Assembly: GCF_003334385.1 (NCBI RefSeq)
Contig: NZ_QOWN01000130.1
Source: Escherichia coli
GTDB lineage: Bacteria; Pseudomonadota; Gammaproteobacteria; Enterobacterales; Enterobacteriaceae
Length of the DNA stretch: 1,057 nt
Direction: 5' to 3' (one strand)
In this document: positions 1 to 1,057 of the stretch, in pieces
Layout: the number at the start of each line of letters is the position of its first letter
How positions within the stretch are numbered: position 1 is the first letter of the stretch
Program-made: the position numbers and the translations under genes
Notes under the pieces: generated by a model
Told to the model about the DNA's origin: nothing
What the model saw: only the letters and a program-made list of their open reading frames with translations
Databases searched by the model: none

Positions 1-750
1 CATATTCAGGCAAATTCAACGTCTTTTTTCAGAAATGGCGGCAGGCCGTCCGGGGTGATTGAGATCCCCGGCAGTATAACGGAAGAAAATGCGAAAAAAC
101 TGAAGAGCAACTGGGACAGCGGGTATACCGGCGAAAATGCGGGGAAAACGGCGATCCTGAGCAACGGGGCGAAATATAACCCCACGACGTTTTCACCGGT
201 GGATGCGCAGACGGTGGAACAGCTGAAAATGACGGCTGAAATTGTCTGTTCGGTGTTCCGTGTCCCGGCCTACAAGATTGGCGTTGGCCAGCCTCCTTCC
301 AGTGACAACGTGGAGGCGCTGGAGCAGCAGTATTATTCCCAGTGTCTGCAGACGCTGATTGAGTCCATTGAGCTGTTACTGGATGAGGCGCTGGAAACAG
401 GGGAAAACGAGAGTACAGAATTTGATGTCACCACGCTGCTGAGAATGGACAGTGAGCGGCGCATGAAAACGCTGGGGGATGCGGTGAAAAATACGCTTCT
501 CACGCCCAATGAGGCCCGTAAACGTGAGAATCTGCCGCCCCTGGCAGGAGGCGATGCACTGTATCTTCAGCAGCAGAACTACAGTCTGGAGGCGCTGTCC
601 CGTCGTGATGCCCGTGAGGATCCGTTCGCGTCTTCCGGGAAAACGTCGTCAGGCACACGCCAGGAGGGCGCGTCTGACGGTAATAAGGCCATAAGCGAAA
701 CAGAGCGTGATGCGGTGAAGGCGATGTTCAGGGGGATACTGCGAAAATGA
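1..750 (+). CDS. Phage portal protein, C-terminal ~249 codons (5'-partial; HK97-like portal family suspected)
   Basis: Frame +1 has no stop from base 1 to TGA at 748-750; the ORF track only reports it from GTG at 55. The translation (…FFRNGGRPSGVIEIPGSITEENAKKLKSNWDSGYTGENAGKTAILSNGAKYNPTTFSPVDAQTVEQLKMTAEIVCSVFRVPAYKIGVGQ…) resembles, from memory, the conserved C-terminal core of HK97-type portal proteins. No database search was run. Codon usage is consistent and enteric-like. Confidence 0.75.
   Translation, partial: HIQANSTSFFRNGGRPSGVIEIPGSITEENAKKLKSNWDSGYTGENAGKTAILSNGAKYNPTTFSPVDAQTVEQLKMTAEIVCSVFRVPAYKIGVGQPPSSDNVEALEQQYYSQCLQTLIESIELLLDEALETGENESTEFDVTTLLRMDSERRMKTLGDAVKNTLLTPNEARKRENLPPLAGGDALYLQQQNYSLEALSRRDAREDPFASSGKTSSGTRQEGASDGNKAISETERDAVKAMFRGILRK
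730..736 (+). promoter_or_regulatory. Putative Shine-Dalgarno-like purine-rich element (AGGGGGA) for the downstream gene
   Basis: AGGGGGA at 730-736 lies 10-11 nt upstream of ATG 747. The spacing is slightly long and the element sits inside the upstream coding sequence, consistent with translational coupling. Confidence 0.35.
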
Positions 751-1057
751 CAGAGCGTGAACTGTCCATTATCCGTGCGCTGGGTGAAGAATTCTCCACA
801 GTGCTGGCGGATTTACAGCGCACATTTGAGGGGAAGATGGCCTCGCAGGCACAAGCGTTTGAAGAGAAACTGACTTCCCTGTCGGCGGTATTACAGAAGC
901 ATGTGACGGTGGATGAGGTGCGTCTGGTTCTGCAGGCGATGGTGGATGACGCTGTGGGGGCCATTCCGGTACCGCGTGATGGTCGTGATTACGATCCGGA
1001 AGTACTGAAGCAGGCGGTGAATGATGCGGTTGCGAATATTCCGGTACCGGCGGACGG
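747..1057 (+). CDS. Hypothetical phage head-module protein with helical N-terminus and IPVPxDG-containing periodic repeat (3'-partial); function unassigned
   Basis: ATG at 747-749 overlaps the upstream stop (ATGA). Frame +3 is open to the window end. Translation: MTERELSIIRALGEEFSTVLADLQRTFEGKMASQAQAFEEKLTSLSAVLQKHVTVDEVRLVLQAMVDDAVGAIPVPRDGRDYDPEVLKQAVNDAVANIPVPADG… It sits immediately downstream of a portal gene, where protease, scaffold or decoration genes are commonly found. Confidence 0.65.
   Translation, partial: MTERELSIIRALGEEFSTVLADLQRTFEGKMASQAQAFEEKLTSLSAVLQKHVTVDEVRLVLQAMVDDAVGAIPVPRDGRDYDPEVLKQAVNDAVANIPVPAD
963..1049 (+). repeat. In-frame direct repeat with 75-bp period (ATTCCGGTACCG at 963-974 and 1038-1049), encoding repeated IPVP(R/A)DG motif
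   Basis: Exact 12-nt identity at two positions 75 bp (25 codons) apart. Flanking codons are partly conserved at the protein level (IPVPRDG vs IPVPADG). The repeat probably continues past the window edge. Confidence 0.55.

Follow-up and report, generated by a model that had tools for sequence, protein, structure and literature searches.

The gene considered here, which we call X, starts at position 747 of a 1,057-nt stretch of Escherichia coli DNA (contig NZ_QOWN01000130.1, assembly GCF_003334385.1; this whole stretch is referred to as the window) and lies directly downstream of the gene for an HK97-type portal protein. The family to which X belongs is very large, uncharacterised and mislabelled, and the position of X in the genome is not anomalous. 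We tentatively propose, at a probability of roughly 45%, that X is a trimeric fibre, present in few copies at the neck or portal vertex, that carries a glycan-binding tip. Its helical N-terminus, its variable stalk that is interchangeable with collagen-like segments and its beta domain with a carbohydrate-binding fold together suggest an elongated, probably trimeric fibre, while the gene position, the start-stop coupling and the recurrent fusion would tie X to the portal vertex. X thus looks like a variation on the phage fibre whose tie to the portal is unusual, being genetic and at times also covalent. What the analysis shows is the anatomy of the gene, its family and synteny, the purifying selection on it, the fold of its C-terminal domain and the overlap of start and stop codons; that X is trimeric, is part of the virion, lies outside the capsid and binds a glycan is what we infer.

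The initial annotation of the window had described an unassigned, repeat-bearing open reading frame (ORF) right after the portal gene, and this description holds. Starting from ATG 747, which overlaps the stop codon of the portal gene, the frame runs open up to the window edge (747-1057; this and all other features given below lie on the + strand) and its 103 codons encode the peptide quoted in that annotation. The frame is open only from position 711, and since it has no in-frame ATG, GTG or TTG between the upstream stop and 747, ATG 747 is the first possible start of X. In the closest genome, an E. coli chromosome (locus L001, 98.9% identity over the window), the ORF is 407 aa long and its first 103 aa are identical to those of the window. 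Following the gene downstream in this way reveals eight IPxPxDG motifs, and hence the repeat is not a coincidental duplication.

The two motifs within the window, IPVPRDG (nt 963-983) and IPVPADG (1038-1057), are 25 codons apart, as originally reported, and a 48-nt direct repeat (927-974 vs 1002-1049; 71% identity) has the corresponding spacing of 75 nt. A 12-nt exact repeat core, ATTCCGGTACCG, occurs twice in the window and in none of 200 shuffles. The proposed period of 25 residues nevertheless describes only part of the unit. The spacings between the eight motifs of the full X are 25, 29, 25, 29, 25, 29 and 25 aa, and because they alternate, the true period is 54 aa (162 nt), made of a 25-aa and a 29-aa half-unit. 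Tandem Repeats Finder likewise reports a 162-nt unit in phage JLK-2012 (3.3 copies, 95% matches, score 973). The first 25-aa half-repeat (IPVPRDGRDYDPEVLKQAVNDAVAN; 963-1037) consists of a Pro/Asp/Gly loop followed by a 13-residue helix, and the first 29-aa half-repeat begins at 1038 and ends at the window edge (1057). When the repeat number was compared across related prophages, as the initial annotation had recommended, it was found to vary: the frame of X is open for 257, 311, 365, 419, 473 or 527 codons among closely related prophages, and these exact steps of 54 codons show that the repeat copy number is polymorphic.

The AlphaFold2 model of X, calculated for a monomer, agrees with the earlier suggestion that the N-terminal ~70 residues are helical. 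It places a long alpha-helix at residues 3-51 (nt 753-899; predicted local distance difference test score, pLDDT, above 90, with block values of 81-94), which is a candidate coiled-coil anchor, and a second helix at residues 55-72. The opening ~15 residues (M[TN]ERELSxIxxLGEEF) are also kept by relatives. Each half-repeat is modelled as a helix of 13-17 residues plus a Pro/Asp/Gly loop of 11-12 residues.

An exhaustive HMMER scan for the family recovered 5,636 cluster representatives at 50% identity (E <= 1e-3). The best 149 representatives have between 0 and 19 IPxPxDG-like motifs; 146 of them share a C-terminal domain (0-54 residues from the C-terminus), and just one, P0257, also has a portal domain. 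A separate top match, P0080, represents an incomplete copy of the portal-X fusion of E. coli described below. Runs of at least five G-x-y triplets occur in 46 of the 146 representatives, and 36 of these have such a run in the stalk before the C-terminal domain. The motif in members such as P0238 reads IPVPKDGLDGKDGENG and extends into G-x-y runs; the PxDGxD of E. coli X is therefore seen as a minimal collagen-like segment, although the uninterrupted G-x-y runs that define collagen (PF01391) are absent from E. coli X, which has only DG-x-D(G) fragments. Moreover, P0270 has a Pfam Collagen match, and stalk and C-terminal segments of family members match tail-fibre PHROGs, for instance phrog_5073. 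Comparison of its members thus shows that the family keeps the C-terminal domain and varies the stalk. The initial proposal of a likeness to collagen and fibres is borne out by these homologues and by the fold of the C-terminal domain, which resembles that of carbohydrate-binding modules (CBM) of the CBM5/12 type as in phage fibres.

That domain, comprising the last 140 residues of X, is all-beta and is modelled with high confidence on its own (pLDDT 93). It matches the fold of solved CBM5/12 domains. When the family profile of the domain was searched against PDB sequences, it recovered CBM12-bearing chitin deacetylases and chitinases as well as All3316, which belongs to the baseplate of the contractile injection system of Anabaena (E 2e-4 to 1e-2). 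A Foldseek search against the predicted viral structures of BFVD gave phage proteins with collagen triple-helix repeats or ChiC_BD domains. The assignment to CBM5/12 is based mainly on the modelled fold, because the Pfam match of the single sequence is weak. The ratio of nonsynonymous to synonymous substitution rates (dN/dS) of the C-terminal domain is 0.06-0.31 as against 0.04-0.14 for the portal, with similar dN, indicating that X is under purifying selection.

Database labels obscure this family. X matches positions 455-859 of phrog_2271 (E 3.8e-268) and phrog_1289 (E 4e-196), and distant standalone members match the latter end to end; PHROG 1289 is the standalone family and PHROG 2271 the E. 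coli fusion, and both are labelled 'portal protein'. The same name is given to UniProt entries of 250-500 aa from Enterobacterales, Pseudomonas, Burkholderiales and others, and NCBI likewise has entries of this length called 'phage portal protein'; further names in the family are 'carbohydrate binding domain protein' and 'collagen-like protein'. However, X has no match to the portal models TIGR01537 or PF04860. These features belong to the upstream ORF, which in L001 matches TIGR01537 (portal_HK97) at E 4.7e-105 over model positions 2-343 of 343 and phrog_2271 over positions 1-451. The label 'portal protein' is thus wrong for the standalone protein, and it spread from the fused E. coli forms, since some phages carry a portal-X fusion. 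We also observed that the name 'gp6-like head-tail connector protein' is given to some members of 300-370 aa in Salmonella, Enterobacter and Arsenophonus, which is probably a spill-over from the annotation of the neighbouring gene.

Other searches gave little. Pfam on the full X returned only the weak CBM_5_12 match and spurious TetR_C_35 matches, NCBIfam only sub-threshold noise (V-ATPase E and Mre11), a query of PDB sequences with X by itself only a designed helical repeat (E 0.038), and PADLOC nothing. A PF28083 tag precomputed on close homologues corresponds to a faint QatB match. A match to a known prohead protease, scaffold or delta-domain family would have made X an ordinary head gene, and none was found on the full protein; in particular, PHROG, NCBIfam and Pfam gave no peptidase S78/S14 or scaffold family match. 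The idea that X occupies a place normally held by a protease or scaffold was also mistaken. The Peptidase_S78 prohead protease and the major capsid protein form a single 645-aa gene 5' of the portal gene (L001 5237-7174; L010 4619-6556), and X is an additional conserved gene that separates the portal from the gp6-like adaptor.

The link between X and the portal gene is close. The window opens within the 3' part of the portal gene (1-750, frame 1 open from the window edge), which contributes its last 249 codons and the TGA at 748-750. The portal tail comprises a Gly/Ser/Thr-rich linker (~616-693) and a conserved segment ending in ERDAVKAMFRGILRK (~694-747). The start of X (747-749) and the portal stop (748-750) share the sequence ATGA (747-750), and the surrounding AAATGA recurs throughout the enterobacterial clade, at 52 of 53 split loci; those at ~67% identity are among them, and the 55%-identical relative L010 has it too. 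A sequence resembling a Shine-Dalgarno (SD) site, AGGGGG (730-735), encodes an Arg-Gly pair in the portal tail and lies 11 nt 5' of the start codon of X, and distant relatives have AGAGGA, CGAGGA or CGGGGG at this position. Such an overlap combined with an SD-like site is the signature of translational coupling, and it suggests that X is made in amounts similar to those of the portal. The portal tail itself, KAMxRG[ILF]LxK*, is kept in 30 close loci and in 22 of 23 loci at ~67% identity (L075 differs), with similar tails in L010 and L011. This terminal segment (E..A.KAM.RG.L.K) is likely helical judging by its sequence and is a possible docking peptide; the ribosome-binding site of X falls within its final codons.

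Synteny extends this link well beyond E. coli. A PF04860 portal is encoded directly 5' of X in L010, L011, L092, L093, L095 (Salmonella phage FSL SP-016), L096 (Rhizobium phage RHph_X2_26), L097, L098 and L099, and the portal adjoins X in every context that was inspected individually, several metagenomic contigs included. For a second set, 80 diverse IMG/VR loci were taken, four of which have no room upstream; a portal ORF lies upstream on the same strand in 67 of the remaining 76 (~88%), and no portal was detected upstream in the other nine. Ten C-domain loci can be listed as having no detectable upstream portal ORF (L101, L110, L113, L119, L121, L123, L136, L147, L148 and L179), one more than counted, as one locus with ~550 nt upstream was classed as having no room. 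Two of the ten have little upstream sequence, L101 almost none, and in L136 the C-domain gene follows the large terminase gene. PHROG scans of the upstream ORFs at these loci mostly gave no match; one matched a virion structural protein. As a further observation, the genes after X in the metagenomic contig L098 (4472-11456) are of MptE-like, radical SAM/SPASM and BNR (sialidase-like) type, in place of a head-tail adaptor.

The initial annotation missed that relatives join portal and X in one frame through a run of G residues at 731-735. Phages 2851, YYZ-2008 and phi330 encode portal and X as a single 860-aa ORF, and a fused ORF of ~860 aa is present in 13 of 43 close IMG/VR loci, the other 30 being split. 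The sole difference at the junction between the two forms is six G residues (G6) instead of five (G5) in this tract, which lies 12 nt before the portal stop. A census of the fetched loci, to which all our G5/G6 counts refer because surrounding haplotype variation defeated short exact queries of the tract, gave G5 in 36 and G6 in 15. G6 occurs on at least four local haplotypes, one of which has both run lengths. This suggests a recurrent change, with recombination or assembly error as alternatives. The G5 homopolymer may itself be a hypermutable tract. None of the 23 loci at ~67% identity is fused, and among the more distant relatives inspected only P0257 is. For this reason, and because the portal tail of the split frame is conserved as protein, the split form is ancestral and the fusion derived. 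P0257 is an independent portal-X fusion of 1,237 aa from a metagenomic phage, found in four contigs (for instance L093 and L094, 8001-11714), whose stalk repeats a different unit (LPEPEPLPDI plus a helix) ~20 times before the same C-terminal domain, and UniProt A0AAX1DK74 (1,143 aa) is a further independent fusion.

The existence of the fused G6 form explains why the Prokaryotic Genome Annotation Pipeline (PGAP) annotates portal and X together as one 'frameshifted' pseudogene (L001 7386-9970; L003 2386-4970). According to such a call, the split arrangement would be a pseudogene in which the portal gene is broken by a 1-nt deletion, as one might also conclude from the single ORF of phages 2851 and YYZ-2008 and from the 859-position 'portal' profile of phrog_2271. 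We consider this extremely improbable. The split form is the majority among close loci (30 vs 13) and the only form in the 23 at ~67% identity, and Salmonella and Rhizobium phages and metagenomic relatives are split as well. The tail of the split frame, …RGILRK*, is kept as …RG[LFM][LI]xK* at ~67% identity and as …KGLLK* in L010 (55%), an intact X is present in all of the split loci (53 of 53) and X is under purifying selection, and the upstream ORF alone contains a complete HK97 portal domain. The conserved split form and the selection on X rule the pseudogene reading out; comparison of these loci indicates that the 'frameshifted' call is an annotation artefact and that the split pair is functional rather than a broken portal gene. 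Table 1 of Asadulghani et al. 2009 (PMC2669165) scores the portal as defective in the Sakai prophages Sp3, Sp6, Sp9 and Sp12, and these scores may reflect the split arrangement rather than a real defect.

A different use of the same junction would be a programmed -1 frameshift, or slippage at the G tract, that yields a minor portal-X fusion from the split form, so that some portal subunits carry the fibre. Lambda gpG/gpGT and T7 10A/10B would be the analogues. The frame of X is -1 relative to that of the portal, and a slip of -1 either by tRNA-Lys on A_AAA followed by UGA (744-750) or by tRNA-Gly on G_GGG followed by the rare AUA (732-738) could give the same fusion as in the G6 phages; the SD-like AGGGGG lies 8 nt 5' of A_AAA, and the recurrence of G6 on several haplotypes fits as well. 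However, the slippery sites are not conserved, as in relatives at ~67% identity the first site reads GCU_AAA_UGA or ACC_AAA_UGA and the G run is replaced by AGAGGA. The downstream RNA shows no significant structure: the fold at 725-830 has z = -1.29, with 27 of 200 shuffles folding at least as well. Moreover, ATGA overlaps are common, and coupling by termination and reinitiation fully explains this junction. Frameshifting in the E. coli clade is thus unsupported, and we regard it as highly unlikely.

The tract could also act as a switchable tether. Here mutation or low-level slippage at the G5/G6 run would set the fibre free or fused to the portal, and fused copies inside the head, leaving with the DNA, would bring the CBM5/12 domain into the periplasm. 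We think this improbable; if true, it would mean a portal-anchored ejected protein in siphophages and a new class of portal-tethered fibre.

Returning to X as a portal-vertex fibre, we envisage the following arrangement. X would be translated from its own ATG at 747, which overlaps the portal stop, with the SD-like AGGGGG in the last portal codons, and its output would be low and portal-like. The long N-terminal helix would serve as anchor and oligomerisation segment, and the 25/29-aa units, each with a short Pro-x-Asp-Gly collagen-like turn and a helix of 13-17 residues, would form a segmented stalk whose length shifts by whole 54-aa units. At the far end, the conserved 140-aa beta domain with its CBM5/12-type modules may bind glycan, nucleate trimer folding, or both. 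The role of X might then be an accessory, reversible adhesion to surface polysaccharide.

Several points weigh against this proposal. Searches of the literature and databases found no paper on X, and for the family as a whole neither an experiment nor a proteomic record or a solved structure. The trimeric state is suggested only by collagen runs in homologues, whereas E. coli X has only one or two G-x-y triplets per unit, and AlphaFold2 leaves the mutual placement of the repeat units unresolved (pLDDT 40-65). The Pfam CBM_5_12 match (PF02839) on X alone is weak, with an i-E of 0.0049 over residues 357-379 only. The C-terminal domain is the most conserved part of X (dN about that of the portal) and the N-terminus evolves fastest; a conserved 'tip' together with a variable 'anchor' is the reverse of a typical host-range fibre. 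Finally, the C-terminus of known portals (SPP1, P22, T4, phi29) lies in the crown, inside the capsid, and therefore a fusion such as that of the viable phage 2851 puts X inside the head, unless the retained SD site and ATG still yield free X or the linker is cleaved.

Because portal C-termini are internal, the tip conserved and the anchor variable, an internal portal-bound protein stays the main rival and a serious one, even if we hold it to be unlikely. X would then be an internal head protein on the portal crown, packaged and possibly ejected with the DNA, and its CBM5/12-like domain would act in the periplasm, for instance on peptidoglycan. Its in-frame fusion to the portal C-terminus is recurrent (the E. 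coli G6 forms, P0257 and A0AAX1DK74), X directly follows the portal as SPP1 gene 7 does, and the flexible linker and likely helical end segment of the portal adjoin the N-terminal helix of X. A C-terminal domain as conserved as the portal further suggests a constant target rather than a variable receptor. On the other hand, the C-domain also occurs at ~10 of 80 loci where an upstream portal was not detected and matches tail-fibre PHROGs, and the free variation in stalk length is unexpected for a packed internal part. Pfam gave no Phage_Mu_F domain on X, nor was any other known internal-protein domain found on it, and in the fused forms free X could still arise through the retained SD site and ATG. 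Collagen-like triple-helix stalks and CBM tips are known only from external fibres of phages.

The elongated, acidic and helix-rich N-terminal two-thirds of X also resembles scaffolding proteins, and X could thus be an assembly factor (a scaffold or a chaperone for portal incorporation) or a decoration protein spread over the capsid. The head module has no separate scaffold gene (L001, L010), and T4 Hoc, which has a conserved C-terminal domain as its capsid anchor, offers a precedent. However, the linker of the protease-capsid fusion can serve as a delta-like scaffold, and a CBM-like beta domain and collagen runs are not features of scaffolds. Coupling to the low-copy portal would be at odds with the hundreds of copies needed for decoration, and the fusions join X to the portal, not to the capsid protein. 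These considerations make such a role quite doubtful, and a fibre tied to the portal vertex remains our preferred reading.

The window derives from an E. coli lambdoid or Stx-type (Shiga toxin) prophage. It matches 1,251 complete E. coli genome records and 92 phage records, the latter mostly long-tailed Stx1a, Stx2c and Stx2a converting phages (genera Marienburgvirus and Pankowvirus), and the region is matched at 4,817 places in E. coli. The head part of the prophage in L001 has the order small terminase, large terminase, 645-aa protease-capsid fusion, 73-aa ORF, portal and X, and X is followed by a gp6-like head-tail adaptor, a head closure protein, a gp10-like protein, a tail terminator and tail genes. 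The conserved 73-aa ORF between the capsid and portal genes (L001 7219-7440) overlaps the annotated portal start by 55 nt.

These results have consequences for annotation. Thousands of phage and prophage lineages across Proteobacteria carry this structural gene, and it is systematically mislabelled 'portal protein'. The region matches more than 1,000 E. coli genomes, in which the intact pair of genes is prone to being called a frameshifted pseudogene. Prophages of enterohaemorrhagic E. coli may therefore be scored as defective when they are not, and calls of prophage intactness may be widely affected. If X is a glycan-tipped fibre of the neck or portal vertex, it would represent an unstudied adhesion device of Stx-converting and related siphophages, with relevance to adsorption, to the range of hosts and to persistence in the gut. 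A natural experiment on the cargo capacity of the portal C-terminus is also offered by the recurrent fusions of portal and X.

X can be compared with several known systems. The whiskers of T4, made of fibritin (wac), serve as our working analogy, as they have a neck-side N-terminal anchor, a segmented helical stalk with short loops and a small C-terminal beta domain, which could nucleate the folding of a trimer. However, no sequence or fold similarity was found between fibritin and X, the C-terminal domain of X is CBM-like and not a foldon, and the host of X is a siphophage with an HK97-type head, unlike T4. True G-x-y runs are shared by the X family with SPP1 gp12, PRD1 P5 and collagen-repeat tail fibres (PHROGs 5073, 1806 and 14726), and the family also has the fibre-typical linker SAYE(I/L)AV..GF.G....W..SLKG; unlike collagen-like fibre genes, X sits beside the portal gene and not in a tail-fibre module. 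The minor head proteins SPP1 gp7 and Mu F resemble X in that their gene lies right after the portal and their product is low-copy, portal-associated and sometimes portal-fused, but X differs by its fibre-like architecture and the lack of a Phage_Mu_F domain. For X as an internal protein, SPP1 gp7 and the portal barrel of P22 are the positional comparators. The fold counterparts of the C-terminal domain are the CBM5/12 chitin-binding domains (ChiA1 ChBD 1ED7, ChiC ChBD 2D49 and Serratia marcescens ChiB 8YUG); unlike in the CBM5/12 enzymes, the modules of X sit in a 140-aa domain that ends a phage structural protein with no enzyme attached. Carbohydrate-binding appendages on the neck or head instead of the tail tip are exemplified by the neck passage structure proteins with CBMs of lactococcal 936-group phages (PMC6669499) and by the head spikes of RcGTA, the gene transfer agent of Rhodobacter capsulatus (PMC7296036). 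Both are unrelated to X in sequence, and their location was shown by experiment, whereas that of X is proposed here. The proposed mode of action of X would accordingly be like that of T4 fibritin or Hoc, the neck passage structures and the RcGTA head spikes.

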